Of a DNA stretch of 64,000 nucleotides, positions 164 through 49,600 are shown one piece after another. Made by a program: the position numbers and the translations under genes. Position 1 is the stretch's first letter; each line of letters opens with the position of its first letter. The DNA comes from an uncultured Anaerolineae bacterium (GTDB lineage Bacteria; Chloroflexota; Anaerolineae; JACIWP01): the NCBI GenBank assembly GCA_938049385.1, contig CALIBQ010000038.1, positions 33,974-97,973 on the forward strand, in the 5' to 3' direction. The notes beneath the pieces were generated by a model, which saw nothing but the letters and a program-made list of their open reading frames with translations, searched no databases and had not been told where the DNA came from.

Positions 164-1009
164 TCAGCCGCGTTTAGCCAGGAGCCGGCGCACCTCTGCC
201 ACCAGCCGGTCGGGCGCAATGGGCTTCGCCAGGAAGGCGTCGGCCGCCGGCGAGGCATCCATCGGGAACATGCCGGCATAGGGCGAATCGGCGATGGAGG
301 AGACCATCAGCACCGGGATGCCGGCGAGCGATTGGTCGGCCCGCATCTGCTCAGCCGCATGCAGACCGTCCCAGATGTCCCGCATCATCACATCGAGCAG
401 TACCAGGTCGGGCCGGCTGAGGTGCATCAATGCCAGTGCCTGTTCTCCATGGGCCGCAGAGCTGACCTGATAGCCGGCATGTGTCAGGACAGTGCGGCAG
501 AATTCGACGAAATCCGGATCATCGTCCACCACCAGGATGTGGCCGGGCCGCGCCGACGGAAGCCGCCAGTCTGCCGACGAGCGGATGATCTCCAGCACCT
601 GTAGGATGTTGGTGCGCAGGATGCCGCTCTGCTGGCCCAGGGTGTGCAGGAGGAAATAGGTCAGGGCGCGTGGGCTGTCGAAGGCGGCTTCGATGAGCAG
701 GTTCCATTCGCCGGCGACGAAATAGAGGGCGATGACGGCGCTTTCGTGCTGGAGTGTGCCGGCGATGCGCGGCACTGCCCCCGGCTCGCACTGCACGCCG
801 ATGAAGACATGATGCGGGTAGCCAACGCGCGGCAGGTCCAGCGCCACCGCCAGCCGCATCCAGCCCTCATCCAGCAGGCGTTCCAGACGCTTGCGGATGG
901 TGCCTTCGGCGACCCCCAGCCGGCGGGCGATTTCCACATTGGGAATGCGCCCGTTCTCCTGCAGGATGCGGATGATATCCCGGTCCAGCTCGTCCAGTTG
1001 TGCCGACAT
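164..1009 (-). CDS. Lrp/AsnC-family transcriptional regulator fused to a C-terminal response-regulator receiver domain
   Basis: ORF 164..1051(-); N-terminal AsnC-type HTH (DRDIIRILQENGRIPNVEIARRLGVAEGTIRKRLERL) plus RAM-like domain; C-terminal receiver with DDD pocket, LLDVMM acceptor Asp, LMVSS and LAKP motifs; start placed at ATG 1009 (MSAQLDELD) with GGAG RBS 8 nt upstream; ATG 1051 also possible. Confidence 0.8.
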   Translation of the reverse strand: MSAQLDELDRDIIRILQENGRIPNVEIARRLGVAEGTIRKRLERLLDEGWMRLAVALDLPRVGYPHHVFIGVQCEPGAVPRIAGTLQHESAVIALYFVAGEWNLLIEAAFDSPRALTYFLLHTLGQQSGILRTNILQVLEIIRSSADWRLPSARPGHILVVDDDPDFVEFCRTVLTHAGYQVSSAAHGEQALALMHLSRPDLVLLDVMMRDIWDGLHAAEQMRADQSLAGIPVLMVSSIADSPYAGMFPMDASPAADAFLAKPIAPDRLVAEVRRLLAKRG

Positions 1010-1085
1010 GGGGTGTGCTCCATATCTGTGCGCCTGACTATATGATACCATATTTTGCGAAAAATGTCAATAGCAAAATAAAAAT

Positions 1086-4239: not shown

Positions 4240-4500
4240 GGGTTATGCATAAGGCCCGGCAGTTGAAACTGCGGCTACGTCTGCGAAGTCAGCCTGTTCC
4301 GACTGCGCGAGGCCTGCAGAGGCAGGCTTCGCAGTTATTGCTGTGGCTTATGGAATTTCATCCTCGCGCCTTGTCTGGTGCTGAAGCACCAGTTTCATGA
4401 GCCAGGTGCTTCAGCACCAGGCTCACGGTGCCAAGCCCCGCAGGGGCTTCGCTTCATAAGCCGGCGGCTGGGATGCCGCCGGCGAACCTGCTTGAGACCA
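4240..4500. repeat. intergenic repeat cluster: truncated copy of the MITE-like family (core 4255-4350) followed by hairpin module (4380-4490)
   Basis: core GCAGTTGAAACTGCG...CTGCGAAGTC...GCAGGCTTCGCAGTTATTGCTGTGGCTT matches copies at 13047, 22279, 31977, 43616, 49374; second module CCAAGCCCCGCAGGGGCTTCGCTTCATAAGCCGGCGGCTGGGATGCCGCCGGCGAAC recurs at 49531-49590. Confidence 0.6.
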
Positions 4501-13046: not shown

Positions 13047-13220
13047 AGAGTGTTGAAAAAGTCCAAACATATAATCTTGTGGAAGCGATCTAGCGGCTGA
13101 AGCCACGGCAACAACTGCGAAGCCTGCGCAGGCTTCGCGACGTCGGCCGACTTCGCAGGCACACAGCCGTAGTTTCAACTGCTAGGCGATGAGCCAATAC
13201 CCGCTTTTTCAACACTCTCT
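13047..13220. repeat. MITE-like repeat, full copy with perfect 16-bp terminal inverted repeats (GAGAGTGTTGAAAAAG ... CTTTTTCAACACTCTC)
   Basis: TIRs read directly at 13047-13062 and 13205-13220; internal core GTCCAAACAT...GCGGCTGAAGCCACGGCAACAACTGCGAAGCCTGCGCAGGCTTCGCGACGTCGGCCGACTTCGCAGGCACACAGCCGTAGTTTCAACTGCTAGGCGATGAGCCAATAC shared with five other intergenic loci. Confidence 0.75.
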
Positions 13221-14378: not shown

Positions 14379-17300
14379 TTAACGGGATGGCCGGCCGGCT
14401 GGCCGCGGCGGGCCGGCGGGATGGCTGGCCGGCGGCGATGGCTCCCGGGCCGGCGGAACAGCCCCACTAGGACGCAGGAACGTGGTCTCTTCGAGCACAT
14501 CGGCCAGCCGGCGGTCCTTGGGGATGGCCAAGTAGAAGATACTGCCAACGCCGACCTCGCTCTCGACCCACACCTGCCCGCCGTGCTGTTCCGCCACTTC
14601 CTTGACCAGGGCGAGGCCCAGGCCGGTGCCGTGGATATGCAGGGTCTCGCGCCGGCGCACGCGGTAGAATTTCTCGAAGATGCGCCGGCGGTCGGCCTGC
14701 GAAATGCCGATGCCTGAGTCAGCTATCTTGACCACCACCGCGGAGGCCAGCTCCTGCACGGAGACCTTCACCCAGCCGGGCGCCATGGTGTACTTGATGG
14801 CGTTATCAATAAGGTTGCGGATGGCGCGCTTGAGCCGGTCCGGGTCGCCGATGACCATCGACACGTCGGCCGGCAGTTCCACCAGGAAGCTCAGCCCTTT
14901 GCCCTCGGCGTAGGTGCGCATGTTCTCGGCGACCTCGCTCACCAGGTTGACGAGCTGGACCGGCGTCATGGTCATGCCAATCTTATTGGAGACCTCCGCC
15001 AGTTCGGTCAGCTCGTTGATGAGCTGGGTCAGGTCGTCACTGCCCTTCAGGATTTTCTCGATGTATTCGAGCTGGCGCTCGCTCACCGCTTCATCGCGCA
15101 GCATGGAGGCATAGCCGCGCACGAAGGTGAGCGGGCTTTTCATGTCGTGGGCGATGGTGTGAACGAAATCGGTCTGCAGTTCGTCCAGGCGCTTCCATTC
15201 GGTGATGTCGCGCATGACCAGCACCCATCCCTGCGGGGCGGTTTTCCCGCTCAACCGGATGGGGGAGGCGCTGACGTACAGCCGGCGGCCGTCCCGCTCC
15301 AGCTCGATAGTGGTGGGGCCGCGCCCACGCGCGATGTCGGAAAGCATGCGGAAAAGGGAATCGTCACTGATGAGTTCGGGCAGGGGAGTGCCGACACGCT
15401 CCTGGAAGTTGAACTCCAGCAGTTCTTCGGCGGCCGGATTCGCCAACTGCAGACGTCCCTCGGCATCCAGCACCAGGATGGTATCCGGTGTGCTGTTCAG
15501 GATGGCGGCCAGCCGACTGCGCTCGCTCTCCACCGCATGGTAGATGCGGTTGTTCTCAATCATGATGCCGCCCAGACTGGCCAGGGCGGACAGGAAGTGC
15601 ACATCCGAGGACGAGAAGGGGCGTGCCGCCGGCCATAATGCCCACAGGGCGCCCAGGTTGCGGCCCTCGCGAAGCATGGGGAGCATGACGAAGGCGGCCA
15701 CATTGGCGCGCTCCATCAAGGCAAGGGGCACCTCGCCGTGTTCCTCGTGCACATCGCTGACGATGACTTGCCGCGCCTTACGCCAGGTCTGGCCGGCCAT
15801 CTGCTCCAGGTACAATTCCAGGTCCGCCGGCAGGTTGCCCTCGCCTTCCATAAAGCGCTTCCAGATGGCGCCGTCGGTGCCGATCAGGTACATGCCGGCG
15901 GTGTGCGCTTCCATGCCCCGGGTGACGGCGCGGAGCAGGATGCCCACGGTGTGCTCCAGATTGGCGCGGGCGGAGACGTTCTGGCTGACCTCGACCAGGC
16001 GGGCCAGTTCCTCGACGCCGGCGCCCAGCCCGATGGTCATGCGTTTGATGGCGCGCACGAGCTGGCCGATTTCATCGCCGCGCCGGTCAGCTTCGGGCAG
16101 GGGGGTGTTCAGCTCGCCGGCGGCGATGCGCGCGGCGGCCTGGGCGATTTGTCCCAGTGGATGCAGTTGGGTCTGCAATTCCCAGACCATGCCGGCGGCT
16201 AGGATGGCGAACAGACCGATCAGCAAAAAGAGCAGAGGGCGTGCCAGCCGGCCGGCGGACTGCATGATCGTGCCTTGGTCGGTCTCCATCACAAGGTGCC
16301 ATCCGAGACGGTCCATCCGCCGCCAGTAGGTGAGCTGGGGCTGACCACCAGCACCGTTCTCCGCGTATGCCTGGCCGGCCCGCACGGTAAAGCGGCGCAG
16401 AGGTTCGGCATTGGCTACCCAGGTAGAAATGTTAGGAGGAGCGCCGGCGGAAAAGAGGATACTGCCGCGATCGTCAATGAGGTACACGCGGTCGGCAGTA
16501 TCGTTCCCCTGACGCATGGACAACGCCGCCTCCACGGCCGGCTGTCGGAGGGGAAGCATCCGTCCGATGAGCACGCCGCGCACCTGCCGGTCGCGTGGGT
16601 CCAGGAGTGGGGTCGCCATGGAAATCGCCGGCTGGCCGTCGGCCCAGCGGTAGGTACGGCTCAGCGCGGTATGTCCCTGTGCGATGGCGTCCGCAAGGGC
16701 AGCGAACTCTGCTTCGTTCAACGGCGGTGTGCCAGCGCTCTCGCCCAGGGCACGCACCGCTACGATGTTGGCGGTCTGGTCCAGCAGGATGAGCGTGTGG
16801 AAAGGTGCATTCGCCAGTTCCACTGTCTCCAGCGCGCCCGCCCACTGGTTGGTGGGGATGTCGGCGAAGCGGCCGGCGGCAGTAATAGAGTCCAGGCTTT
16901 CTAGGCCGGCCTGCGCCGTGCCCTCCAGCGCGCCGGCGAGATCGCCGGCGGCGTTCTCCATCTGCCCCAGGGCCTGCTCGAATGCGATGCGGGTGCTGGC
17001 GGCGTAAAGAGCGATGATGGAGACGATCGCAGTGATTGTAAGAAGCGGCATCAGCCGGGCGCGCAGGCTGGCGGCCAGGGTGCGTTGGGGGATGATTTCC
17101 CCTGCTGACCCGAGACCCTGGCGCAGTGCGGGGGAAAGGGCGAGCAGGAGCTGTGCCAAGCCTCCCAGTACGAGCGCGCCGACACATACGGGGATGATCT
17201 GGCCGGCTGGCGGAACCGCCGGCGCCAGCAGTCCTGCCCATAGGGCGGGATTCACCAGGTAGGCGTACAGCGGAAGCGGCCAGAGGAGCACGCTGACCAG

Positions 17301-17774
17301 CGGAGTGCTGAAGAGCGGCTGGCGGAGCAGGGCAAGCAGAAGCCCGCGATGAGTTTGGCGCAGGCACCAGGCCAGCACAAAGCCGGCCAGGGCGCCGAGC
17401 AGTGGATGCAGGCTGGGCGCGGTGGTCGAAAGGGCGTAGATGAGGCCGCTGATGCCGCCGGCCAGCGCGGCCGGCGCACGTCCCAGCCAGAGCGCGGCCA
17501 TCAGTAAGGGCAGGGACGCCAGCAGGGGGACTGGTGTCTGGCCGGCCGGCGTGGAGGCTTCGGAAAAGCGCAGGACAAGGGGCGCAGTGATGGCGGCGGC
17601 CAGTGTCGCGAAGAACAGCGGCAGGTGCCGGCGGATAATGGTCAATTCATCCTGGTACAGCCAGAAAATGAAGATGATGAACAATGGGGCGAAGGCAAGG
17701 AATATCAGGGCGAGGGGGTTGTCCAGTATCACTGCCGGCGAGCCGGGCAGGCCGCCAATCCATTCCAGCCGCAT
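14379..17774 (-). CDS. multidomain membrane sensor histidine kinase (polytopic N-terminal domain, HAMP, GAF/PAS, HisKA, HATPase_c)
   Basis: 1131 aa; ~8 N-terminal TM helices; H-box FVHTIAHDMKSPLTFVRGY, N-box NLIDNAIKYT, G-boxes DSGIGIS and GTGLGLALV; no cognate response regulator adjacent. Confidence 0.85.
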   Translation of the reverse strand: MRLEWIGGLPGSPAVILDNPLALIFLAFAPLFIIFIFWLYQDELTIIRRHLPLFFATLAAAITAPLVLRFSEASTPAGQTPVPLLASLPLLMAALWLGRAPAALAGGISGLIYALSTTAPSLHPLLGALAGFVLAWCLRQTHRGLLLALLRQPLFSTPLVSVLLWPLPLYAYLVNPALWAGLLAPAVPPAGQIIPVCVGALVLGGLAQLLLALSPALRQGLGSAGEIIPQRTLAASLRARLMPLLTITAIVSIIALYAASTRIAFEQALGQMENAAGDLAGALEGTAQAGLESLDSITAAGRFADIPTNQWAGALETVELANAPFHTLILLDQTANIVAVRALGESAGTPPLNEAEFAALADAIAQGHTALSRTYRWADGQPAISMATPLLDPRDRQVRGVLIGRMLPLRQPAVEAALSMRQGNDTADRVYLIDDRGSILFSAGAPPNISTWVANAEPLRRFTVRAGQAYAENGAGGQPQLTYWRRMDRLGWHLVMETDQGTIMQSAGRLARPLLFLLIGLFAILAAGMVWELQTQLHPLGQIAQAAARIAAGELNTPLPEADRRGDEIGQLVRAIKRMTIGLGAGVEELARLVEVSQNVSARANLEHTVGILLRAVTRGMEAHTAGMYLIGTDGAIWKRFMEGEGNLPADLELYLEQMAGQTWRKARQVIVSDVHEEHGEVPLALMERANVAAFVMLPMLREGRNLGALWALWPAARPFSSSDVHFLSALASLGGIMIENNRIYHAVESERSRLAAILNSTPDTILVLDAEGRLQLANPAAEELLEFNFQERVGTPLPELISDDSLFRMLSDIARGRGPTTIELERDGRRLYVSASPIRLSGKTAPQGWVLVMRDITEWKRLDELQTDFVHTIAHDMKSPLTFVRGYASMLRDEAVSERQLEYIEKILKGSDDLTQLINELTELAEVSNKIGMTMTPVQLVNLVSEVAENMRTYAEGKGLSFLVELPADVSMVIGDPDRLKRAIRNLIDNAIKYTMAPGWVKVSVQELASAVVVKIADSGIGISQADRRRIFEKFYRVRRRETLHIHGTGLGLALVKEVAEQHGGQVWVESEVGVGSIFYLAIPKDRRLADVLEETTFLRPSGAVPPAREPSPPASHPAGPPRPAGRPSR

Positions 17775-22278: not shown

Positions 22279-22480
22279 GGAGGTGTTGGAAAGGTCAAGA
22301 TTGTCATTCGATTTGCGGGTATTGGCTCATCGCCTGATAGTTGAAACTGCGGTTGTGCCTACGAAGTCGGCCGGCGCCGACTTCGTGAAGCCTGCGCAGA
22401 CAGGCTTTATAGTCGTTGCCGCGGCTTCAGCCGCCAGGCCGCTTCCACAGATTGTATGTTTGGACTTTTTCAGCACCCTC
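22279..22480. repeat. MITE-like repeat copy (inverted orientation relative to copy at 13047)
   Basis: contains GGTATTGGCTCATCGCCTGATAGTTGAAACTGCGG...CGAAGTCGGCCGGCGCCGACTTCG...GCCTGCGCAGACAGGC...GTTGCCGCGGCTTCAGCCGCCAGGCCGCTTCCACAGATTGTATGTTTGGAC with TIR-like ends GAGGTGTTGGAAAGGTC / GACTTTTTCAGCACCCTC. Confidence 0.7.
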
Positions 22481-25757: not shown

Positions 25758-26354
25758 TCAGCGTTTGGGCCGGCTGATGATGGATAGGTAGCGCGCTTCC
25801 TCATCTCCCAGGGCGCGCACGCTCTCTAGATAGCGGTTCTCGAAGTAAATGCTGTCGCCGGCCGCTAGCTCGTAGGTCTCGCCGGCAATGGTGACCTCGA
25901 TGCGGCCGGCGAGCACCAGGATGCACTCTTCGGAGGGTTCCGCCAGCGGCTGCTGCACCATGTTGCCGGCATCGGCACGCGCCTTGACCTCGAAGACCAC
26001 CAGGTCGCGCGTCAACTGCGGAGTGACGATCTCATACGTGACATTGCCGGGCGGGAAGGTCATGCGCGCCCGACGGTGGTAGCGCACGATGGGCGTATGG
26101 TTGGGCGGCTCCCCCATGAGCTGATAAATGGGGAGCTTGAGTGCGTTGGCGATGCGGCGGATGGATGCTAGGGTCGGATTGCCGATGCCGCGCTCCAGGT
26201 TATTGATGAAGGTGGGGCTTAGATCGGTGATTTTGGCCAGATCGCGCAGGCTCAAGCCCATTTCCTTGCGCCGGGCGCGGATGCGCTCTCCGATATGAAG
26301 CCCTACATTGCGGTCGCTCGTGTAACTTTCCTCAGGGTCCTGTGGTCCAATCAT
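25758..26354 (-). CDS. XRE-family HTH transcriptional regulator with C-terminal cupin domain
   Basis: HTH_XRE (IRARRKEMGLSLRDLAKITDLSPTFINNLERG) and cupin barrel (ECILVLAGRIEVTIAGETYELAAGDSIYFEN). Confidence 0.8.
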   Translation of the reverse strand: MIGPQDPEESYTSDRNVGLHIGERIRARRKEMGLSLRDLAKITDLSPTFINNLERGIGNPTLASIRRIANALKLPIYQLMGEPPNHTPIVRYHRRARMTFPPGNVTYEIVTPQLTRDLVVFEVKARADAGNMVQQPLAEPSEECILVLAGRIEVTIAGETYELAAGDSIYFENRYLESVRALGDEEARYLSIISRPKR

Positions 26355-26452: not shown

Positions 26453-27718
26453 CTATGACAGTGCCCGGGTGCGCCGGCGCACAGCGAGATACATGCCCAA
26501 CAGGCCGATGCCCGGCAGGATGCTCAGGCCGCAGACCTCGGGCGCAGGTGCCGGCGTGGGCGAAGCCTGCGGCGTGGCCTCCCCTTCCGCGACGGGCGGA
26601 GTGCCTGCGGCCGGCAGTTGGCGCGGCCCCAGCCCCAGGCTCTCCCGCCACAGCCGGTCCAGCTCATCCAGCCCGAAACCGTACACTCTTTGTAGGGCAT
26701 CCTCCTGATACGCCCCCCGCTTGAACTCCTGCAGGAGGGCGACCAGCTTCTCGCGCCCGTAGGTCTCCAGGAGGAACTTCACCAGGCTGTACGATTCGGC
26801 GTAGAAGAGGTCCACTTTGGCGGGGTCGCCGCTGTAGCCGGACAGGGAGCGGACGGAGATGAGGTCATCCTGCTTGACGGCCTGGTCGAGGGCGCGGCGG
26901 TTGCGGGCCGGCAGTTCCCCCTCGGCGTACATGGCCAGCCCCTCGTCCAGCCAGCGCGGCAGATCGCCAAAGGGATTTTTCGTCGCCAGGCCGACCACGA
27001 TATGGCTCAGCTCATGGGCCAGGGTCTGGTCCAGATCCGGCTCACTGCCCAAGAGCAGGAGCGTATCATCGGCGACCACCATGCCCAGCGTCACTGTCAT
27101 CTCGTCATAGCGCTCACTGCGCGAGGGCAGGGCCAGGCGCATGTCATTCCGGTTGGCATAGACGTAGATGTGAATGGGCTGTTCGAGCGTGACGCCGATT
27201 TCCTGGCCCAGCCTCTCCAGAATCTGGAGGGACTGCTGGAGCAGTGCCTGGGCTTTCTTGGCGTCGCGATAGGCGTAAACATGCACCAGGTCTTGGGCAT
27301 ATTCCTGCCAGTCGAAGCGGTCGTCCTGATAGACAAGGGAATAGGAGGTAGTGCGGGTCTGCCGGCCGGCGGCGTCGCTGATCTGCCAGTAATAGGTTAT
27401 CAGGGCGCCGGGGTACAGGGAGCCGGGGAACAACTGCCAGCGCCACTCGGCCTGCACCTGCCGGCTGGGCCGAAATTCCGGATAAGCGCGCGTGACCACT
27501 CGGCTGTCCCCTACCCGATAGAATAGGATGACCGACTGGATGTCGGCGTCGCTCTGCGCCGTCAGGCGGAAGCGGATTTCTTTGGCGAAGGAATAGCTGG
27601 CGCTGGAGTTGAGCACCTGGATGCCGGCGTCCTGGCTCCACACCAGGCCGGCCGGCGCGATGAGCAGGGCGCAGAACAGGGCCAGGAAAAGGTAGAACCA
27701 CCAGCGGGATCGCTTCAT
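26453..27718 (-). CDS. secreted peptidase MA-family zinc metalloprotease (HEXXH) with C-terminal TM anchor
   Basis: N-terminal signal peptide MKRSRWWFYLFLALFCALLIAPAGLVWSQ; zinc motif LAHELSHIVV; C-terminal APAPEVCGLSILPGIGLLGMYLAVRRRTRALS (hydrophobic helix plus Arg-rich tail). Confidence 0.7.
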   Translation of the reverse strand: MKRSRWWFYLFLALFCALLIAPAGLVWSQDAGIQVLNSSASYSFAKEIRFRLTAQSDADIQSVILFYRVGDSRVVTRAYPEFRPSRQVQAEWRWQLFPGSLYPGALITYYWQISDAAGRQTRTTSYSLVYQDDRFDWQEYAQDLVHVYAYRDAKKAQALLQQSLQILERLGQEIGVTLEQPIHIYVYANRNDMRLALPSRSERYDEMTVTLGMVVADDTLLLLGSEPDLDQTLAHELSHIVVGLATKNPFGDLPRWLDEGLAMYAEGELPARNRRALDQAVKQDDLISVRSLSGYSGDPAKVDLFYAESYSLVKFLLETYGREKLVALLQEFKRGAYQEDALQRVYGFGLDELDRLWRESLGLGPRQLPAAGTPPVAEGEATPQASPTPAPAPEVCGLSILPGIGLLGMYLAVRRRTRALS

Positions 27719-27723
27719 GTCTG

Positions 27724-27945
27724 TTATTCCCTGGGCGGGGGCACCGGCAGGCGCTCCGCCGGCGTCGTGCTCCAGCGGTTCCCGATCTCTTCCAGCATGT
27801 ACGGGATGTCATCAATGATCGGGTACTTGCGGCCGCACTCCTGGCACACCAGCCAGCACTCTTTCACCAGTTCCAGCAGTCCCTCCCGGCCCTGCGGGGC
27901 ACAGTGGGGACAGCGCAGGATGGTCAGCAGTTCCTGGTCAATCAT
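27724..27945 (-). CDS. Trm112-family small zinc-ribbon protein
   Basis: ORF 27724..28017; start at MIDQELLTIL; motif LLTILRCPHC...LVCQECGRKYPIIDDIPYMLEE typical of Trm112/UPF0434. Confidence 0.6.
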   Translation of the reverse strand: MIDQELLTILRCPHCAPQGREGLLELVKECWLVCQECGRKYPIIDDIPYMLEEIGNRWSTTPAERLPVPPPRE

Positions 27946-28013
27946 GGGATGGCCTCCTTGCGGCAGGGCATCGAGTTTTGCCGGCCGCAGTATAGCACAA
28001 GAGGGGCGAGGGT

Positions 28014-28658
28014 TCAATTCCCCGCCGGCGGCTCCTCTTCCTCGGCGGGCGGATACAGACCGCCCAAGTCATCCACCGTCTTGATGACCCGGGCCGGGTT
28101 GCCGGCGGCTACCGCACGCGGCGGGATGTCATGGGTAACGACGGAGCCGGCGCCGATGAGGGCATCGGCGCCGATGCGTCGGCCGGGCAGGATGGTGGTG
28201 TTGGCGCCGATCTTGGCGCGCCGGCCGATGACCGGCCCCTCGAGTTGTTCCTTCACCCCCACCGACAGGGGGTAGCGGGCGTTGGTCAGCACCACGTTCG
28301 GCCCCAGCCAGCATCCCTCCTCCAACACTGAGTACTCCGGCACAAAGGCCTGGGAGTGCACCCGGACACCGTCCTCGATGCGCACATGGTGCTCAATAAC
28401 AGTGTGGGAACCGATGCTGACGTTGTTCCCGATCTCGTTCTCTTCGCGGATCAGGACGTGGTGGCCCGTCTGGAAGTTGTCGCCGATGCGGTTGCCGGCG
28501 TATATCACCGTGTGCGAGCGGATGACCGCGTTATCCCCGATGACTGTCTCCAGCTCGCCGGGGGCGCGGCCGCGCGGCGGCTCGCCGATGATGACGAAAG
28601 CGCCGATCTGCACATTCTTGCCCAGTCGGACGTTGGGGTAAATCTTGGCTTCGGTCAT
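28014..28658 (-). CDS. sugar N-acetyltransferase with left-handed beta-helix (hexapeptide repeats), WbpD/PglD-like
   Basis: ORF 28014..28826; start at MTEAKIYP (ATG 28658, GAGGAAA RBS); repeated [LIV]-G-x-x-x-x hexapeptides (VIGDNAVIRSHTVIYAGNRIGDNFQTGHHVLI...IGSHTVIEHHVRIEDGVRV). Confidence 0.8.
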   Translation of the reverse strand: MTEAKIYPNVRLGKNVQIGAFVIIGEPPRGRAPGELETVIGDNAVIRSHTVIYAGNRIGDNFQTGHHVLIREENEIGNNVSIGSHTVIEHHVRIEDGVRVHSQAFVPEYSVLEEGCWLGPNVVLTNARYPLSVGVKEQLEGPVIGRRAKIGANTTILPGRRIGADALIGAGSVVTHDIPPRAVAAGNPARVIKTVDDLGGLYPPAEEEEPPAGN

Positions 28659-28704: not shown

Positions 28705-30027
28705 TCACAGCTTGACGATTTTCGCTCGCGGCGCCCGCACCCCGCGCAGGGCGTTGCGCGTGTCCACGATAAGGCCGGCGTTCTGCGCCACCCACTCCCA
28801 ATCGTAAGCGGAGTGGTCCGTGACAATGACGACGCAGTCCGCCTGCTGAAGCGCCTGCGCGGTCAAATCCACGGACCGCATGACCGCATCATCCAACTGG
28901 AGTTGGGGCACATGCGGGTCATGGTACGAGAGGTTCGCGCCGCGCAGGAGCAGTTCGCGCATAATGTCCAGCGCCGGCGATTCGCGGATATCGCCCACAT
29001 CCTTTTTATAGGCCGCGCCCAGTATCAACACCGAGGAGCCGCGCACCGGCTTGCGGGCATCGTTCAGCGCGGCGATAACCTTGTCCACCACGTAGTGCGG
29101 CATATGGGAGTTGATCTCGCCGGCCAGTTCGATGAAGCGCGCCGTGTAGTTCAGGGTGCGCAGTTTCCAGGCCAGATAATGGGGGTCCACCGGGATGCAG
29201 TGCCCGCCGAGGCCCGGCCCCGGCAGGAAGCGCATGAAGCCAAAGGGCTTGGTGGCGGCGGCGTCAATCACCTCCCATACGTCCAGCCCCAGTCGGTCGC
29301 ACATGATGGCGATCTCATTGACCAGGGCGATGTTGACGGCGCGAAAGGTGTTTTCCAGCAGTTTGGTCATCTCGGCGGCCGCCGGCGAGCTGACCGGCAC
29401 AATGGTCTCGATGATGGAACCGTAGAGCGCGCTGGCTACCTCCAGGCAGGCCGGCGTCATCCCCCCGATGACCTTGGGCGTGTTGCGGATGGTGTAGACC
29501 GGGTTGCCAGGGTCCACCCGTTCCGGCGAGAAGGCCAAGAAAATGTCCTCGCCGATGCGCAATCCGTTGGCCGCCAGGCGCGGGGCGATGATTTCCTCGG
29601 TGGAGCCGGGGTAGGTAGTGGATTCCAGGACGATGAGCTGGCCGCGCCGGCTCCGCTGGGAGATAGCGTCCGCGGCCTGCAGGATGTACGAGATGTCCGG
29701 GTCGCGGCTCTTGCCCAGCGGTGTGGGCACGCAGATGGAAATGGTGTCGAGTTGGGGAATCATGTCGTAAGAGCTGGTGGCCATGAGCCGGCGCCCCTCC
29801 ACCAACAGCCGCAGTCGCTCCGCCGGCACGTCCCCAATGTAGCTCTGGCCGGCGTTGATGGCCGATACCCGATGCGGGGCCAGATCAATGCCCAACACGG
29901 TAAAGCCGGCCTCGGCAAATTCCACCGCCAGTGGCAGGCCTACATATCCAAGGCCCACCACCCCCACGCGGGCTTCCTTCCGCCGGATGCGCTCCAGGAG
30001 AGCTTCCTTCACAGACGGAATAGACAT
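28705..30027 (-). CDS. nucleotide-sugar 6-dehydrogenase (UDP-N-acetyl-D-glucosamine/mannosamine dehydrogenase, WbpA/WecC-like)
   Basis: 440 aa; NAD-binding GVVGLGYVGLPLA; catalytic Cys region PGPGLGGHCIPVDPHYL; UDP-glucose/GDP-mannose dehydrogenase family C-terminal domain. Confidence 0.9.
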   Translation of the reverse strand: MSIPSVKEALLERIRRKEARVGVVGLGYVGLPLAVEFAEAGFTVLGIDLAPHRVSAINAGQSYIGDVPAERLRLLVEGRRLMATSSYDMIPQLDTISICVPTPLGKSRDPDISYILQAADAISQRSRRGQLIVLESTTYPGSTEEIIAPRLAANGLRIGEDIFLAFSPERVDPGNPVYTIRNTPKVIGGMTPACLEVASALYGSIIETIVPVSSPAAAEMTKLLENTFRAVNIALVNEIAIMCDRLGLDVWEVIDAAATKPFGFMRFLPGPGLGGHCIPVDPHYLAWKLRTLNYTARFIELAGEINSHMPHYVVDKVIAALNDARKPVRGSSVLILGAAYKKDVGDIRESPALDIMRELLLRGANLSYHDPHVPQLQLDDAVMRSVDLTAQALQQADCVVIVTDHSAYDWEWVAQNAGLIVDTRNALRGVRAPRAKIVKL

Positions 30028-30030: not shown

Positions 30031-31044
30031 TCAATATCCCTCCTCCGGGTTGATTTCATTCAGCAGTGGCTCGCCAGCCAGATATCGGCGCAGGTTTTCT
30101 GCGAACAGACGGGAGGCGCGCTCCTCATAGCGGTCTGTGATGGCGGAGATATGGGGTGTGAGGATGACGTTGTCCAGCTCCCAGAGCGGGTGGTCCGCCG
30201 GCAGGGGTTCTTTGGAGAACACATCGAGGGCGGCGCCGGCGATCCACTTTTCCCGCAGGGCCTGGAGCAAGTCCTGCTCCACGATAATATCCCCGCGCGC
30301 CACATTGATAAGGAGTGCCGAGGGTTTCATGGCGCGCAGCGCGTCGGCGTTGATAAGGCCGCGGGTGGCCGGCGTCAGCGGGAGGGTCACCATCACATAG
30401 TCGCACTCACCCAGCATGCTGTGCAGTTCCTCCGGGCCGTACCAGCGTTCTGGAAGCCGACCTTCCGGGTCCCCCAATCCTGGCTCGATATAGCCGCGGT
30501 CGCGCCGGTCCTGCGGGTGGCGCTTGAGTGCCAGGATGCGCATGCCGAAGGCCGAGGCCAGCCGGGCGACCTCGCGGCCGATACTGCCGTACCCCACGAT
30601 GCCCAAGACAGCGTCGCGCAGTTCCAGACTGCGCAGGATGTTCCAGCGTCCTTTGGGCCATTCCCGCCGGCGCTGAAGCTCCAGCGTGGTCGGCAGGCGG
30701 CGCGCCCAGGCCAGCATGACGGCCATAACATATTCCGCCATGGGGCCGGCGTGGATGCCGCTGGTGGTGGTGATGTGGATGTGCCGGGCGGCCATGACCG
30801 GATGGCCGGCCAGGTGCTCCGCGCCGGCACTGGAAAGCTGAACCCAGCGCAGGCTGGGCACCTGTTCCAGCGAAGGGGGCAGTCCAAAGGTGTACAGCAC
30901 CTCAGCGCGCGCCAGCGGCTCGCCGATGGAAGCAAAATCCTGGGTAGGGATTTGCTCCACGTTCAGTTGGGGGGAGACGGAACGCAGTCGCTCGAGCTGG
31001 CTGTCGTTGAAGCGGCCGAGGCATAATACGTGAACGGTGTGCAT
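30031..31044 (-). CDS. D-isomer-specific 2-hydroxyacid dehydrogenase family protein (NAD-binding)
   Basis: 337 aa; Rossmann motif GIVGYGSIGREVARL, conserved RGDIIVEQDLLQAL...LDVFSKEP...NVILTPHIS catalytic region. Confidence 0.85.
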   Translation of the reverse strand: MHTVHVLCLGRFNDSQLERLRSVSPQLNVEQIPTQDFASIGEPLARAEVLYTFGLPPSLEQVPSLRWVQLSSAGAEHLAGHPVMAARHIHITTTSGIHAGPMAEYVMAVMLAWARRLPTTLELQRRREWPKGRWNILRSLELRDAVLGIVGYGSIGREVARLASAFGMRILALKRHPQDRRDRGYIEPGLGDPEGRLPERWYGPEELHSMLGECDYVMVTLPLTPATRGLINADALRAMKPSALLINVARGDIIVEQDLLQALREKWIAGAALDVFSKEPLPADHPLWELDNVILTPHISAITDRYEERASRLFAENLRRYLAGEPLLNEINPEEGY

Positions 31045-31122: not shown

Positions 31123-31806
31123 TCAACGGGCCGGCGGGGCATGGCTCTCCGGTGGGAGCACCAGACGGTAGCCCTGCCCGCGCACCGTCTGAAGATAGAC
31201 CGGGTGCTGGGGGACTGGCTCGATTTTCTTCCTCAGCCAGCAGACATGTACTTCCAGCGTGCGTGTATCTTTGACGTAATCGGTGTTCCAAATGGTGCGC
31301 ATAATCTCCCCGCGGGTGACGACCTCGCCGGCGCGCGCCACCAGCAGGGACAGCAGAGCGGCTTCCTTGGGCGTCAGATGGATGGTGTCCTCCCCTCGCA
31401 GGAGGAGGCGGTGCTTGGGATCGAAGGTTACATCTCCCAGCCGGACGAGATAGCGTGGGGGGATTTGCTGGAGGCGCCTGATGCGGTAGTAGAGCTTGCG
31501 GAAGGTGATGGGCGGCTCGAAATACGCGTCCACCGCCTGGGGGACGGATGAACATGTACGCGGCAGGGCGGCAATCAACCAGACATAGGGGTCTGAATGC
31601 CGCACCTTTTCGCACAGGGCTAATCCCTTTCCCAGGTCATCGGTGGTGTCGACAAAGGCATAGTCGGCATCAGCGTTAGCGGCCCATGCCACCATCTGCC
31701 GTTTGTTGCCGGTGGTCTGGACCGCGAAGCCATGCTGATCCAGCGCCTTCGCCAGTGACGAGGCCACTGCCCGATTGTGGGTGAAAATCAGCACCTTTTC
31801 CGACAT
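31123..31806 (-). CDS. OmpR/PhoB-family winged-helix regulator with degenerate (atypical) receiver domain
   Basis: C-terminal trans_reg_C (LTPKEAALLSLLVARAGEVVTRGEIMRTIW...LEVHVCWLRKKIE...VRGQGYRL); N-terminal receiver-like fold has LIFTHN instead of VVDDD and EPP instead of KP. Confidence 0.75.
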   Translation of the reverse strand: MSEKVLIFTHNRAVASSLAKALDQHGFAVQTTGNKRQMVAWAANADADYAFVDTTDDLGKGLALCEKVRHSDPYVWLIAALPRTCSSVPQAVDAYFEPPITFRKLYYRIRRLQQIPPRYLVRLGDVTFDPKHRLLLRGEDTIHLTPKEAALLSLLVARAGEVVTRGEIMRTIWNTDYVKDTRTLEVHVCWLRKKIEPVPQHPVYLQTVRGQGYRLVLPPESHAPPAR

Positions 31807-31976
31807 GGTGGGTATCCTGCGCGCTTCTTGACCGAACTTAAGTCAGGTGAAGCTAGCACCGGTTGGGGCTGCCGGCCTGGGAAGAAGAGGCACGTCCGTC
31901 ACGTGAATACCTGCTTTCCGCACCAACACACATACCATTATACCGGACGCGGCCGAATCCGGCAATATGTACCATC

Positions 31977-32137
31977 GAGGGTATGGGAAAAAGTCCAAAC
32001 ATGCAATCTGTGGAAGCGGCCTAGCGGCTGAAGCCACGGCAATAATTGCGAAGCCTGCCTGCGCAGACCGACTTCGCAGGCACACAGCCGCAGTTTCAAC
32101 TGCCAGGCGATGAGCCAATATCTTTTTCGACACCCTC
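31977..32137. repeat. MITE-like repeat copy with imperfect TIRs (GAGGGTATGGGAAAAAG ... CTTTTTCGACACCCTC)
   Basis: same orientation and near-identical core as copy at 13047 (GTCCAAACATGCAATCTGTGGAAGCGGCCTAGCGGCTGAAGCCACGGCAATAATTGCGAAGCCTGCCTGCGCAGACCGACTTCGCAGGCACACAGCCGCAGTTTCAACTGCCAGGCGATGAGCCAATAT). Confidence 0.75.
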
Positions 32138-32254
32138 ACTATCGGGCCATTTTCGCCGGCGCTTAATCTTCTTTTAATCCAGCCGTGATACACATGTAGC
32201 GGGTGTTATGCCCATACTTGAAAATCCTACCAATCTGAAGGAGCAAGGAGGGGT

Positions 32255-33445
32255 GTGCCTATGTGGCGACATCGTAGCCTGGCCTGGATCAGTTTGCTGG
32301 TCTTGCTGTCCTTGCTGGTAAGCCCGCTGGTTGTGCTGGCCCAGGGGGAGGCCGGCGCGTCCGCACCGTTCCGCATGTTCACCTCCTACCCGGCGCGCGA
32401 GGTGGCCAAGGGTGGGACGGCGACCTTCGACATCTCTCTGCTGGCCAACTCCGAACCGCAGATCGTCTTCCTGGAAGTGCAGGGACTGCCCGAAGGTTGG
32501 AAAGCCACCCTGCGCGGCGGGGGTGACGTCATCCGCGCGGCCTACGTGCAGACCGAGGATAAGACCTCTGTCTCGCTGAAGATCGAGGTGCCGGCGGAGG
32601 CCGCCCCGGACACCTACCGCTTCACACTGGCCGGCAAGAGCGATCGAGGGCAGGTGACGCTCCCGCTGGAACTGACCGTGAAGGAGAAGCTTCCCCCGAC
32701 CCTGACTTGGGAGGTCAAACTGCCCACCCTGCGGGGCAATCCGACTACCACTTTCCGCTATGATGCCACCCTGCGCAACGACGGCGGCGAGGACCTCAAC
32801 GTCAACCTGGTTTATGAAGCGCCGCAGGACTTCAAGGTGGTCTTCCGCCTGCTGGGGCAGGATGTGAGCAGTTTCCCCATCAAAGCCGGCGAATCCAAAT
32901 CCCTGACCATCGAAGTTGACCCGCCTGATACCATGCCGGCCGGCAAGTACGACATCACCCTGCGGGCGCGCGGCGGGGAGACTGAGGCCGAGACCAAGCT
33001 GACAGCGGACATCACGCCTAAACCCGGCAGTCCCGTGCTCAGCATCAGCGGTGCGGACGGCCGGCTCTCCGGCGATGCCTATGCCGGCAAGGAGAACACC
33101 CTCAAGATCGTGGTGTACAATACCGGCGATGCCGCGGCCGAGAAGGTGAAGATGAGCTCCTCGGAGCCAGCCGGCTGGACGGTCTCCTTTGACCCCGAGG
33201 AAATCGCCAGAATCCCCGCCGGCGAGCAGGCCGAGGTGAAAATGACCATCAAGCCGGCGGAGAAGGCCATTGCCGGCGATTACATGATCAGTATTACCGC
33301 CAAGCCGGAGAAGGAAAGCTCCAAGTCGGTGGACTTCCGCATTACCGTCCGCACCTCGACCTTGTGGGGCGTTGTCGGTGTGGCTCTGATCGCCGTCGCT
33401 GTGGGGGTGGTCGCCATCGCTGTCCTGCGCTTCGGCCGCCGCTGA
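32255..33445 (+). CDS. exported NEW3-domain (NPCBM-associated) repeat protein with C-terminal membrane anchor
   Basis: signal peptide; repeated beta-sandwich modules ([23 protein letters not shown]; [27 protein letters not shown]; [25 protein letters not shown]); C-terminal [29 protein letters not shown]; first gene of NEW3-ABC ATPase-ABC2 permease trio. Confidence 0.65.
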
Positions 33446-33464
33446 CGGCGGAAGGAGGGCGCCT

Positions 33465-34415
33465 ATGGACGAACTGGTGATCGAGACCGAGGGCCTGACC
33501 AAGCATTACAACGGGGTGGTGGCGGTGGAGGACCTGAACCTGCGGGTGCGCCGGCAGGAGGTCTTCGGCCTACTGGGCCCCAACGGTTCCGGCAAGACCA
33601 CCACCATCCTCATGCTCCTCGGGCTGACGGAGCCAACCGCCGGCTGGGTGCGTGTGCTGGGCCTGGACCCAGCCCGCCAGCCCCTCAGCGTCAAAGCGCG
33701 CGTCGGCTATATGCCTGACGAGGTGGGCTTTTACGAAGAGCTGACCGCTCGCGAGAACCTGGCCTACATCGCTCGGCTGAACGGCCTCTCCGGGCGCGCC
33801 GCCTATGAGCGCATCGAGGAAGCGCTGGGGCGGGTGGGCTTGCTGGAGGTGGCGGACCGCCCCGTCGCCACCTATTCCCACGGCATGAAGCGCCGGCTGG
33901 GCGTGGCCGACGTGCTCATCAAGAAACCCCAGCTCATCATTATGGATGAGCCTACCCAGGGCCTGGACCCGGAGGCGGCGCGCGAGTTCCTGCGCATCAT
34001 TCGAAGCCTCAAGGAGGAGGGCATCACCATCGTTCTTTCCTCCCATTTGCTCCATCAGGTGCAGGCGGTCTGTGACCGGGTGGGTCTGTTCCACAAAGGG
34101 CGTATGGTGCTGGAAGGGACGGTCACCGAGCTGGCGCGGAAGGTGCTGGGCACCGCCTACCACATCCAGCTCGAGGCAGAGGGCCAGTCGGAGAGGATTA
34201 TGGAGGCACTGCGCCGGCTCCCTGGCGTTACCGACGTGATTTGGGATAGCAAGCATCACTATCGGGTGGCGGCAGTGGAAGACCTGCGCACGGAAGCCGC
34301 CGGCGCCGTCATGTCCGCCGGTGGCCGGCTCCTCTCGCTCGAGCTGGACCGCCCTAGCTTGGACGACATCTATGCCCGCTACTTCGAGGAGGTGGAGCAT
34401 GTCCCAGCCGCGTGA
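33465..34415 (+). CDS. ABC transporter ATP-binding protein (ABC-2 type)
   Basis: Walker [10 protein letters not shown], signature SHGMKRRLG, Walker [13 protein letters not shown]. Confidence 0.9.
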
Positions 34416-35385
34416 GGAAGGCCGGCGTTTGCCGGCACGCGAAGGCTCTCCCTGGACGGGGTTGTGGGCAGTGGTCGCCAAGGAGATGGCTGACCATCTC
34501 ACCAGCGCGCGCATGCGCATCCTGGAAATCCTCATCGTACTGACCGCCGTCGGCACGGTGTACATGGCCATCCAGGAAATCCGCACCACCATCGCCCAGG
34601 ACCCCTTCCTGTTCCTGCGTCTGTTCACGACGTCGAAGGACCCTGTGCCGGCCTTCGTCGGTTTCCTGGGCTTCTTGATACCGCTCATCGCCATTGCCCT
34701 GGGCTTTGACAGCATCAACGGCGAGTTTAACCGCCGCACCATCTCTCGTGTGCTGGCCCAGCCCATTTACCGCGACGCGCTGTTGATGGGCAAGTTCCTG
34801 GCAGGCCTCTTCACCCTGACCATAGTGCTGACGGCCATCTGGCTGTTGATCATCGGGCTGGGGCTGATCACGCTGGGAGTGCCGCCCAGCCCGGAGGAGC
34901 TGGCGCGCGCCCTGTGCCTGCTTCTGCTGTCTATCTTCTACGGCGGCATCTGGCTGGCAGTGGCGATGGTCTTTTCGGTGGTGTTCCGCCAGCCGGCCAC
35001 GGCGGCATTAGCGGCTATCGCCATCTGGCTCTTCTTCCTGGTGTTCTGGGACATCTTGAGCAGTCTGCTGGCGTCTGCGCTCCTGCCCATCCGCTACGGC
35101 GCGATGGAGGAAATCCTGGCGCAGACCAAACTGGCCATGAACCTGGCGCGCATCTCGCCCAACACCCTGTTCAGCGAGGCCATCATCCCCATCCTCCAGC
35201 CCAACGTGCGCTCCCTGGGGCTGGTGCTGACCTGGCAGTTGCAGGGGGCCATTTTGGGCACGCCCCTGCCGCTGGGGGAGAGCCTAGTGCTCATCTGGCC
35301 GCATCTGACCGGCCTCATCGCCGGCACTATCCTCCTCTTCGCCCTGTCCTACATCCTCTTCCAGCGGCGGGAAATCCGCGTCTGA
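34399..35385 (+). CDS. ABC-2 family transporter permease
   Basis: ORF 34321..35385; start at MSQPREEG (ATG 34399, GGAGGTGGAGC RBS, 17-nt overlap with ATPase gene); 6 TM helices. Confidence 0.8.
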
Positions 35386-43615: not shown

Positions 43616-43755
43616 AGGAGGATGTGGAAAAGGCCAAGATTTGCGGGTATTGGCTCACTGCCTGGCAGTTAAAACGGCGGGCCTGCGCCGGCTTCGCGAA
43701 ACCTGCGCAGGCGGGCTTCGCAGTTATTGCCGTGGCTTCAGCCGCCAGACCATGG
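43616..43755. repeat. MITE-like repeat copy (inverted orientation; right end degenerate)
   Basis: GAGGATGTGGAAAAGGCC...GGTATTGGCTCACTGCCTGGCAGTTAAAACGGCGGGCCTGCGCCGGCTTCGCGAAACCTGCGCAGGCGGGCTTCGCAGTTATTGCCGTGGCTTCAGCCGCCAG. Confidence 0.65.
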
Positions 43756-43923
43756 CGCGCACTGATATATAACTGGCATACTTGACATCGGCATTGAAAT
43801 ATGATACTTTGTAATTAGCGCGCAGGCGCTTTTCTTTTGCGGCCCGCTGCATACATTCGATATACCAGCGTTACGCACGCCGGCCGCCTATCATTTTTCT
43901 GCCCCAAAAAGGAGGAAGGAAAC

Positions 43924-45342
43924 ATGCTACAACGATTTGTGGAGTTTCTGACCCCAGCAGATGTAACGCGCATCCATGAGCAGTCCATGCGCCTGCTGGA
44001 AGAAGTGGGGGTGGAAATGCCGGTGGAGGCGGCGCGCGAGGCGCTCCGCCAGCGCGGCGCGCGGGTCGAGGGCACGCGCGTCCACCTGCCCCGCCGGCTG
44101 GTGGAAGAAAGCATCCGCCTGGCCCCCTCCCGCTTCACCATTCACGCCCGCAACCCGCAGAAAGACGTGGTGGTCGGCGGCGGCAGTTCCGTCTTCGCGC
44201 CAGGTTACGGCGCACCGTTCCTGATGGATTACGAGAAGGGCCAGCGCCACGCCACTATGGAGGATTACCAGAACCTGGTGCGCATCATTGACGCACTGCC
44301 CAACCTCGACCTTTCCGGGCACCTGTTGGTGGAGCCGCACGACGTGCCGGCCGGCAGTGCTCACCTCCATATGCTCATGGCGCACCTGCGCTACTCCGAC
44401 AAGCCCTTCATCGCCTCCAGCAACGGACAAAAGGGCGCCGAGGCCACGCTGGACATGGCCGGCATCGTGTTTGGCAGTCGCGACGCCCTGCGCAATAAGC
44501 CGGTCACCATCGCGCTCATCAACACCCTCAGTCCCCTGAGCTTCGCCACGGAAATGCTGGAAGCATTGATGGCCTTCGCCGAATGGGGTCAGCCTGTGGT
44601 CATCGCCAGCATGGCGCAGGCCGGCGCCACCGCCCCCGTCACCCTGGCCGGCATGATCGCCCAGATCAACGCCGAAATCCTCAGCGGCGTCGTCCTTGCC
44701 CAGGCCATCAATCCGGGCACACCGGTCGTCTACGGCTCCACCAGCACCATCATGGACATGAACACCGCCGCGGCCGCCATCGGCAGTCCGGAATATTCCA
44801 TCCTGGTCGCCTGCCAGGCGCAGATGGGCCGCTTCTACGGCCTGCCCAGCCGCTCCGGCGGAAGCCTGACCGATTCGCAGGTGCCTGACGCCCAGGCCGG
44901 CCTGGAGTCTATGATGTCCCTGCTCACCACTGTCAACGCCGGCATTGACTTTGTCCTGCACGCCGCCGGCATTCTCGGCTCGTACCTCACCTTCTCCTAC
45001 GAGAAGCTGGTCATGGACCATGAAATCTGCGGTATGGTGCGGCGCTACCGCCAGGGTCTGCTGGTGGATGACGAGTCCCTGGCCTTCAGCACCATCGCCG
45101 CCGTGGGGCCGGGCGGCAACTTCCTGATGGAAGAGCACACCCTGCGCCACTTCCGCGGCGCCTTCTACATGCCGAAGCTGTGTAACCGCGATGCCCTGCC
45201 GGCCTGGCAGGAAAAGGGGTCCCTCGATATGGCTCAGCGCGCCCATCAGTACTGGCAGAGGGTCCTGCAGACCCATCAGCCGGCGGAGCCGGACGCCGCA
45301 GTCATCCGCGCCCTCGAGGCATACGTCGAGCGGCACTCCTGA
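43924..45342 (+). CDS. MttB-superfamily methyltransferase (non-pyrrolysine; glycine betaine/quaternary amine:corrinoid methyltransferase-like)
   Basis: ORF 43837..45342; start at MLQRFVEF (ATG 43924, AGGAGGAAGG RBS); full-length similarity to trimethylamine methyltransferase fold (TIM barrel) with no in-frame amber codon. Confidence 0.75.
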   Translation: MLQRFVEFLTPADVTRIHEQSMRLLEEVGVEMPVEAAREALRQRGARVEGTRVHLPRRLVEESIRLAPSRFTIHARNPQKDVVVGGGSSVFAPGYGAPFLMDYEKGQRHATMEDYQNLVRIIDALPNLDLSGHLLVEPHDVPAGSAHLHMLMAHLRYSDKPFIASSNGQKGAEATLDMAGIVFGSRDALRNKPVTIALINTLSPLSFATEMLEALMAFAEWGQPVVIASMAQAGATAPVTLAGMIAQINAEILSGVVLAQAINPGTPVVYGSTSTIMDMNTAAAAIGSPEYSILVACQAQMGRFYGLPSRSGGSLTDSQVPDAQAGLESMMSLLTTVNAGIDFVLHAAGILGSYLTFSYEKLVMDHEICGMVRRYRQGLLVDDESLAFSTIAAVGPGGNFLMEEHTLRHFRGAFYMPKLCNRDALPAWQEKGSLDMAQRAHQYWQRVLQTHQPAEPDAAVIRALEAYVERHS

Positions 45343-49373: not shown

Positions 49374-49600
49374 GGAGGGTGTGGAAAAAGACTCATTGCC
49401 TGGCAGTTGAAACTGCGTCTGGTGCCTGCGAAGTCGGCACAGGTCGACTTCGCGAAGCCTGCGCAGGCAGGCTTCGCAGGTGTTGCCGTGGCCTCAGCCG
49501 CCAAACGCTAGCGCACCAGGCTTACGCTACCAAGCCCCGTAGGGGCTTGGCTTCCTGAGCCGGCGGCTTCCAGCCGCCGGCGAACTTCCGACAAGCGGAT
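49374..49600. repeat. MITE-like repeat copy (inverted orientation) plus hairpin module
   Basis: GGAGGGTGTGGAAAAAGACTCATTGCCTGGCAGTTGAAACTGCG...CTGCGAAGTCGGCACAGGTCGACTTCGCGAAGCCTGCGCAGGCAGGCTTCGCAGGTGTTGCCGTGGCCTCAGCCGCC; second module CCAAGCCCCGTAGGGGCTTGG...AGCCGGCGGCTTCCAGCCGCCGGCGAAC as in 4431-4490. Confidence 0.7.

Follow-up and report, generated by a model that had tools for sequence, protein, structure and literature searches.

The gene analysed here lies on the minus strand of a 64,000-nucleotide (nt) stretch of contig CALIBQ010000038.1, from an uncultured Anaerolineae bacterium of the Chloroflexota; this whole stretch is called the window below. The gene encodes an orphan response regulator of the OmpR/PhoB family whose receiver domain has kept its core and the phospho-acceptor aspartate, D53, and has lost the metal-binding acidic pair, the conserved Thr/Ser, the conserved Lys and the whole of helix α4. 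We think it probable that the protein is a phosphorylation-independent transcription factor that heads a conserved sugar-nucleotide operon and controls it. The class to which it belongs is well recognised; this member is uncharacterised and brings in no new principle. The original prediction for this gene had proposed an orphan OmpR-family atypical regulator with a receiver unfit to act as a normal phosphorylation switch, and that core idea is supported by the sequence, the profile scores, a confident structural model and conservation among orthologues.

A receiver that lacks any of the five active-site residues is termed a pseudo-receiver (PsR), and the protein that carries it is an atypical response regulator (ARR) (PMC12632262; Bourret et al., 2025). 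PsRs account for ~6% of bacterial receivers (PMC12632262). An aspartate-less receiver (ALR) is one in which the phospho-acceptor Asp is replaced (PMC4395418; Maule et al., 2015), and ALRs are the subset of PsRs without this residue. The largest raw number of ALRs has been found with OmpR-type outputs (PMC4395418). In what follows the five active-site positions are written DD1 and DD2 (the acidic pair), D (the phospho-acceptor), T (the Thr/Ser) and K (the Lys), and K+1 is the residue after the last of these.

Residues were assigned to these positions from three HMMER alignments (with RegX3, RpaA and KdpE) and from a MAFFT alignment with Escherichia coli PhoB. T9 and H10 (codons ACC CAC, 31777-31782) stand opposite the E/D-D pair of RegX3, KdpE, RpaA and PhoB. 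The loss of the acidic pair, which had been read from the motif LIFTHN, thus holds in all alignments and in the codons. P98 (codon CCG, 31513-31515) occupies the Lys position within E97-P98-P99, the EPP from which the loss of the Lys had been read, and is followed by the conserved Pro99. The T position had been given as Ala. There is no Ser or Thr in β4 and its exit (residues 76-83, WLIAALPR), and to that extent the claim stands; the exact residue that aligns there is I78, A79 or L81, depending on the aligner. The acceptor position falls on D53 (codon GAC, 31648-31650), which closes the predicted β3 and is one of only seven invariant columns in an alignment of 77 sequences. The receiver had been described as aspartate-less, and this part of the prediction does not survive. 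Under the definitions given above, the domain is a PsR within an ARR and not an ALR, because D53 is retained.

Four of the five active-site residues (DD1, DD2, T and K) are therefore absent from a domain with a predicted receiver-like fold. The Pfam Response_reg profile matches residues 5-75 (profile positions 1-71 of 111) with 22.5 bits, below its cutoff of 30.2 bits. Measured against a canonical receiver, the acidic pair, the Thr/Ser, the Lys, a Response_reg match above threshold and the full (βα)5 fold are all wanting, and the phospho-acceptor Asp is present. A phmmer search with the receiver alone against 1.84 billion representative proteins returned 10 matches at E≤1e-3. A tblastn search of the window with the PhoB receiver did not detect the regulator's domain; it did detect another receiver (E=1e-9, ~173-541). 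The latter is a canonical receiver at the left edge of the window, inside a 295-aa open reading frame (ORF; 164-1051, minus strand).

The C-terminal half of the protein is a standard OmpR/PhoB winged helix, as had been predicted. Pfam Trans_reg_C (PF00486) matches residues 141-215 with 95.6 bits against a cutoff of 26.2 (E=1.9e-27), and the modelled domain aligns with the isolated effector domains of KdpE, YycF and VicR at target-normalised TM-scores of 0.84-0.91 (Foldseek). Sequence matches to the PDB (HMMER) include RegX3, RpaA, KdpE, MtrA and HP1043 (2hqr). The model of the whole regulator matches RpaA, KdpE, MtrA, RegX3, CosR, RitR, HP1043 and GlnR in the PDB (Foldseek), a list made up of ordinary OmpR/PhoB regulators plus known atypical ones. 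In NCBIfam there are full-length matches, all far below threshold, to MtrA, CopR, RpaB, PhoB, YycF, NblR and KdpE.

The AlphaFold2 (AF2) model, built on the 77-sequence alignment, has a mean pLDDT of 89.8. By DSSP, the receiver part of the model consists of β1 (residues 4-8), α1 (12-24), β2 (28-32), α2 (35-44), β3 (49-53), α3 (58-71), β4 (76-80), a coil (81-93), β5 (94-96) and α5 (102-113), after which the winged helix follows. Helix α4 is missing from the model. A 13-residue, Pro-rich loop (81-93) connects β4 to β5 in its place, and the alignment has a 5-residue deletion exactly at α4. The leftover segment, LPRTCSSVPQAVD, contains two prolines, and three in some orthologues. Compared with canonical relatives, the protein also has a shorter linker to the DNA-binding domain.

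In the close orthologues (81-88% identity; P0002-P0010, L010 and L046-L049) the THN motif, D53 and LIAAL are kept and the K position is P, G or E. Across the 24 sequences of the clade that we tabulated, D is invariant, DD2 is always His, Lys or Arg, K+1 is always Pro, and the α4 deletion is present. The more distant relatives differ at the remaining positions. The DD1-DD2 pair is T-H in P0011 (51% identity), T-K in L050 (46%) and P0121 (43%), and T-R in P0124 (39%). All four have lost K; T is lost in the first three, and in P0124 the residue aligned there is a Thr. The pair is E-K in P0012, P0013, P0126 and L011, in which T and K are both lost, and G-K in P0014-P0017 and L012-L014, in which K is kept, T is mostly kept, and the receiver carries the Pfam label PDE8A_N. 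K is lost in three of the four clade subgroups. L050 likewise has the D, a basic DD2 and the Pro at K+1.

The receiver is under constraint. We compared the window gene with three orthologues (L010 was left out) by the Nei-Gojobori method. The ratio of nonsynonymous to synonymous substitution rates (dN/dS) is 0.08-0.15 for residues 1-115 and 0.07-0.135 for residues 120-220, so that purifying selection is equally strong on both domains. Therefore the receiver domain does something. The ATG start codon is kept in all orthologues compared. The regulator as a whole diverges faster than its neighbors: it is 84-86% identical to its orthologues in L046/L048, where the flanking enzymes and transporter proteins reach 91-98%, and against L050 it is 46% identical, the three sugar-cluster enzymes being 53-73%.

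The genome matches to the regulator all fall in metagenome-assembled genomes (MAGs) of Anaerolineae or other Chloroflexota, and a literature search for this Chloroflexota clade of regulators found no description of it. The nearest relatives of its DNA-binding domain (42-51% identity; L015-L041, Anaerolineae/Chloroflexota MAGs) are stand-alone winged-helix proteins of 111-134 aa that have no receiver. They share the recognition-helix signature DTRTLEVH[IV]CWLRKKIE, fall by visual grouping into about four subfamilies, and occur as up to three paralogues per MAG. The clade-wide basic DD2, the α4 deletion and a DNA-binding domain close to receiver-less winged-helix proteins make the clade mildly unusual.

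The second line of evidence is the gene neighborhood (Table 1). The original prediction had the regulator divergent from a sugar-modification cluster. It is in fact upstream of that cluster on the same minus strand, and its divergent neighbor is the NPCBM_assoc/CARDB and ABC-2 operon. No terminator was found in the 78-nt gap between the regulator and the 2-hydroxyacid dehydrogenase gene, and the regulator and the sugar-nucleotide genes are probably co-transcribed. In close orthologues there is synteny on both sides of the regulator, which is hence little informative. The 2-hydroxyacid dehydrogenase gene holds the same position after the regulator in L001, L003, L048, L009 and L050. The distant relatives are more telling. 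In L009 (where the regulator is 51% identical) the regulator is followed by the 2-hydroxyacid dehydrogenase gene. In L050 the order on one strand is regulator (46%), 2-hydroxyacid dehydrogenase (53%), an inserted 199-aa ORF, nucleotide-sugar dehydrogenase (71%) and left-handed beta-helix acetyltransferase (73%). The nucleotide-sugar dehydrogenase gene (72% and 64%) comes directly after the regulator in L044 (43%) and, with a 5-nt gap, in L045 (39%). Because this order is kept in relatives whose regulators are only 39-46% identical, it supports a functional link with the sugar-nucleotide genes. A link to the divergent ABC-2 operon was also considered and ranks below that to the sugar cluster. 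Its synteny is confined to close orthologues (81-88% identity); the operon is absent upstream of the regulator in L050 and beside the distant relatives.

The regulator is an orphan in that its neighborhood contains no histidine kinase gene. A Pfam scan of the flanking genes found no HisKA/HATPase_c protein here, nor in the orthologous and distant loci. The prediction that no kinase lies beside the regulator is thus borne out, the nearest among the scanned ORFs being 13 kb away. That gene (14379-17774, minus strand) encodes a 1131-aa Cache-HAMP-GAF-PAS-HisKA-HATPase_c kinase without an adjacent response regulator; its neighbors are YchF and a PadR-family regulator.

Table 1. Features of the regulator locus, with positions in the window.
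Feature	Position	Strand	Evidence and remarks
Orphan OmpR/PhoB-family atypical response regulator gene	31123..31806	-	227 aa; ORF list, Pfam/NCBIfam, PDB sequence matches, AF2, Foldseek
Pseudo-receiver domain, residues 1-115	31462..31806	-	DD1=T9, DD2=H10, D=D53, T=Ala/none, K=P98, K+1=P99
Winged-helix DNA-binding domain, residues 120-220	31147..31449	-	Recognition helix with clade signature DTRTLEVHVCWLRKKIE
D-isomer-specific 2-hydroxyacid dehydrogenase	30031..31044	-	First gene downstream of regulator, 78-nt gap; Pfam 2-Hacid_dh_C, 192 bits
Nucleotide-sugar dehydrogenase, closest to UDP-ManNAc dehydrogenases	28705..30027	-	TIGR03026, 446.7 bits (cutoff 189.8)
Left-handed beta-helix (hexapeptide) sugar acetyltransferase	28014..28658	-	Pfam Hexapep; NeuD/PglB/VioB-type match below cutoff
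Trm112-like protein	27724-28017	-	
Peptidase_MA_2	26453-27718	-	
XRE-cupin protein	25758-26354	-	
Divergent operon: NPCBM_assoc/CARDB membrane protein, DrrA-like ABC ATPase, ABC-2 permease	32255..35385	+	Pfam; Obg next
Predicted sigma-70-like promoter of the regulator, TTGCCG-17-TATAAT	31937..31965	-	Promoter scan; kept in 5 aligned orthologous intergenic regions
Dispersed repeat element, 167 bp, between direct repeat and regulator promoter	31982..32148	-	Specific to this genome; nested hairpins
Candidate OmpR-type operator, 26-nt invariant block CACGGCTGGATTAAAAGAAGATTAAG with GATTAA-N5-GATTAA	32162..32187	-	Longest invariant block in aligned intergenic regions

From these data we propose the following mechanism. 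Phosphotransfer catalysis would not be expected in the receiver, because it has no Mg2+ site and neither of the phosphate-binding side chains, and the protein most likely acts without phosphorylation. DD2 directly ligates Mg2+ in canonical receivers (PMC12632262), and the CheY D13K variant is poorly phosphorylated and constitutively signaling (PMC4671073; bioRxiv 10.1101/781468). Rather than as a phospho-acceptor, D53 may have been retained for the structure or to pair its charge with that of the basic DD2, since the latter is conserved clade-wide and adjoins D53 in the receiver fold. Alternatively, it may have a role in the dimer as in GlnR and RamR, where the D residue is needed for dimer formation and not for phosphorylation (PMC12632262). 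The receiver most likely keeps the protein in a state competent to bind DNA, probably as a dimer, or takes a non-phosphoryl input. For the winged helix, direct repeats would be the binding sites, and GATTAA-N5-GATTAA is the candidate site in this lineage. The 2-hydroxyacid dehydrogenase, nucleotide-sugar dehydrogenase and acetyltransferase genes would be the regulator's operon and, because the gene order is conserved, its likely target. Activity would probably depend mainly on the amount of protein produced from the conserved promoter and its long leader, or on a non-phosphoryl input.

The leader between the predicted promoter and the start codon is ~130 nt long (31807-31936) and is common to the five aligned orthologous intergenic regions. 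The distant loci L009, L044, L045 and L050 likewise have TTGCxx-17-TATAAT followed by a leader of 125-155 nt. The length of the leader is conserved; its sequence and predicted structure are not. A structured leader or riboswitch was rejected, as the fold energy equals that of shuffled sequences (z=0.18), the covariation term is unfavorable (+2.2) and there is no Rfam match. A role as attenuator was also rejected for the terminator-like hairpin at 31905-31891, which has only 5 bp and a non-compensated change in L003. In all family members examined, a near-consensus TTGCxx-17-TATAAT lies 138-164 nt upstream of the start codon; the promoter and leader stretches examined were 31807-31965 (minus strand) in the window, 1-171 in L009, 1-310 in L044, 1-204 in L045 and 2095-2295 in L050.

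The candidate operator is a direct repeat with an 11-bp period. Such a period is typical of OmpR/PhoB sites. The repeat is found in 9/9 close orthologous loci, of which L047 differs in the spacer only. It occurs once in the window, where the chance expectation for the degenerate pattern is 0.61. It lies 76-92 nt upstream of the start of the NPCBM gene, and in the orthologues it is centered ~72 bp upstream of the inferred start site of the regulator.

The original prediction had likened the protein to HP1043, GlnR, JadR1 and NblR. It belongs to none of the listed families: GlnR_1st (PF21695) reaches 13.6 bits (E=0.065), where the cutoff is 27, and NblR (NCBIfam NF045914) reaches 75.4 bits, where it is 300. 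MtrA, RpaB, PhoB, KdpE and similar families were rejected too, since all NCBIfam equivalog scores are far below their cutoffs. The resemblance is instead one of type. GlnR (Amycolatopsis, Streptomyces and Mycobacterium) is also an orphan OmpR/PhoB regulator with a PsR in which the Asp is kept and other pocket residues are lost, and it shares the two-domain fold, its structure 8hih being among the Foldseek matches. It is, however, an actinomycete protein with nitrogen assimilation targets, whereas the present regulator is from Chloroflexota and has apparent sugar-nucleotide targets, and GlnR has the α4-β5-α5 dimer surface where the present regulator has no α4. NblR of Synechococcus elongatus, among the better full-length NCBIfam matches, is an OmpR-type ARR that acts independently of phosphorylation (PMC12632262), but the context and lineage of our regulator are unrelated to it. 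HP1043 (HsrA) of Helicobacter pylori and ChxR of Chlamydia are orphan OmpR/PhoB proteins with highly degenerate receivers, and are constitutive, phosphorylation-independent dimers (PMC8345958; PMC3960148; PMC12632262). The regulator is ~18% identical to HP1043, with 2hqr a match in both structure and sequence. HP1043 and ChxR dimerise through an intact α4-β5-α5 surface, in contrast to the Anaerolineae clade, which lacks α4 and has the Asp and a basic DD2.

Two further comparisons concern the pocket and the genomic setting. In CheY D13K and D13R, as here, the second metal-binding Asp has given way to a basic side chain beside a retained phospho-acceptor Asp. CheY D13K/D13R are engineered forms of a single-domain chemotaxis protein in which T87 and K109 are present, whereas in the regulator the basic DD2 is natural, clade-conserved and combined with the loss of T, K and α4. 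JadR1 and RedZ of Streptomyces are atypical regulators encoded, like this one, within a biosynthetic cluster. They control their own cluster and use the PsR as a product sensor (PMC12632262). They belong to another type of pathway, and only JadR1 has an OmpR-type output.

Several observations weigh against a phosphorylation-independent regulator acting on its operon through the candidate site. A PsR with its Asp retained can in principle still accept phosphate, though inefficiently (PMC12632262), and the orphan HisKA kinase, the only kinase among the ORFs scanned, is 13 kb from the regulator. Without α4, part of the usual OmpR/PhoB dimer surface is gone, and a constitutive dimer formed through the receiver cannot be taken for granted. 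Clade subgroups C and D have unrelated gene contexts, likewise without kinases. The direct repeat was not found in L009, L044, L045 or L050, where there is no ABC operon, and a shared operator motif in the upstream regions of L001, L009, L044, L045 and L050 was rejected because only the -10 box is conserved. In this genome the 167-bp element, absent from the orthologous intergenic regions, separates the direct repeat from the regulator promoter. The direct repeat is thus best treated as a weak, lineage-specific candidate operator, and may instead be the site of a different regulator that acts on the ABC operon.

These points bear on the choice among explanations of the receiver. If D53 received phosphate from a kinase encoded elsewhere, such as the orphan HisKA kinase, the protein would be a working but inefficient response regulator. 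D53 is invariant, and so are a Gly at D+8 and the Pro at K+1 in close orthologues; a kinase without an adjacent regulator is present in the same window, and substitutions of DD, T or K do not always fully abolish phosphotransfer (PMC12632262). We nevertheless hold this to be improbable, given that four of the five catalytic residues, both metal ligands included, are missing together, and that the basic DD2 is as in the poorly phosphorylated CheY D13K (PMC4671073). In addition, α4, which is part of the phosphorylation-coupled output surface, is gone, and nothing ties the regulator to the kinase. A different view, in agreement with ours on non-phosphorylation and differing in the input only, is that the PsR is a small-molecule sensor to which a UDP-sugar acid, or another product or intermediate of the pathway, binds in the remodelled β4-β5 region or the former active site and modulates DNA binding. 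The adjacent sugar-nucleotide operon would then be under feedback from its end product, in the way that jadomycin B acts through JadR1 and undecylprodigiosin through RedZ. The strong constraint on the receiver (dN/dS ~0.1) despite the lost catalytic residues fits this, as does the tight and deep linkage to one biosynthetic gene set, and ligand binding by PsRs is documented for JadR1, RedZ, ShkA, CikA and KaiA (PMC12632262). We did not identify a ligand pocket, however, and the variation among P, G and E at the K position in close orthologues argues against a precise pocket there, so that we consider a sensor unlikely.

Redox control through C65 (in α3), C85 (in the loop that replaces α4) and C190 (in the recognition helix), like that of RitR or HP1021, has a very small chance of being right. 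Control of ARRs by Cys residues is known (PMC12632262), C65 is invariant in subgroups A and B, and C190 (HVCWLRKK) is shared by most clade members and by the stand-alone winged-helix relatives. On the other hand, C85 alternates with Tyr in close orthologues, and other family members have Arg or His in place of C190. C65 is also found in ordinary phosphorylatable relatives, and so is not derived, and there is no RitR-like Cys in the linker. The last explanation, that the N-terminal domain is a decaying, functionless remnant about to be lost and only the winged helix matters, might be suggested by the stand-alone proteins without a receiver that are the closest relatives (46-51% identity) of the DNA-binding domain. 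It is disfavored and scarcely credible: dN/dS in the receiver is as low as in the DNA-binding domain, the N-terminal 30 residues are near-identical among orthologues, and the AF2 fold is compact and confident. A phosphorylation-independent regulator of the sugar-nucleotide operon thus remains our preferred reading.

A more novel reading is offered tentatively, as we rather doubt it. In this Chloroflexota clade the receiver may be self-neutralised, with a basic DD2 placed in the Mg2+ site and paired with the Asp, a natural lock like that of CheY D13K, and with the deletion of α4, which makes up half of the canonical dimer surface. If so, the domain would use a surface or an input unlike those of other atypical OmpR/PhoB regulators. 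It might sense a UDP-sugar from the operon that the regulator heads, and the clade would represent an intermediate stage in the evolution of the receiver-less, stand-alone winged-helix proteins, which abound in Anaerolineae. How PsRs switch in bacteria is mostly unexplained (PMC12632262). The clade is a compact natural example that joins a retained Asp, a basic metal-site residue and a deleted α4, and it comes from a little-studied phylum with a candidate target operon, clear and conserved, for the synthesis of cell-envelope sugar nucleotides. This combination makes the regulator a reasonable system in which to ask about the role of the retained Asp.

The 167-bp element upstream of the regulator promoter belongs to a dispersed repeat. 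Further copies lie at 4258-4349, 13055-13199, 22320-22471, 43648-43745 and 49392-49501. The repeat is ~100-170 bp long and hairpin-rich, has at least 6 copies in the 64 kb, and these are apparently all intergenic. Its consensus reads ...GGCAGTTGAAACTGCGGCTG...GCGAAGCCTGCGCAGGCAGGCTTCGC...GCCGTGGCTTCAGCCGC.... The insertion was rejected as a known RNA, as no Rfam family matches it. It looks like a miniature inverted-repeat transposable element (MITE) or an element similar to the repetitive extragenic palindromic (REP) sequences.

A repeat of another kind is found in L050, in which an exact 11-nt sequence, TTTGAGGGTTC, occurs at ~2122-2134, in the promoter spacer, and again at ~2280-2292, directly before the start codon of the regulator. 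It may serve autoregulation in that lineage. Elsewhere in the window, an MttB-family trimethylamine methyltransferase homologue (Pfam MTTB, 543 bits) is encoded at 43837-45342 on the plus strand.

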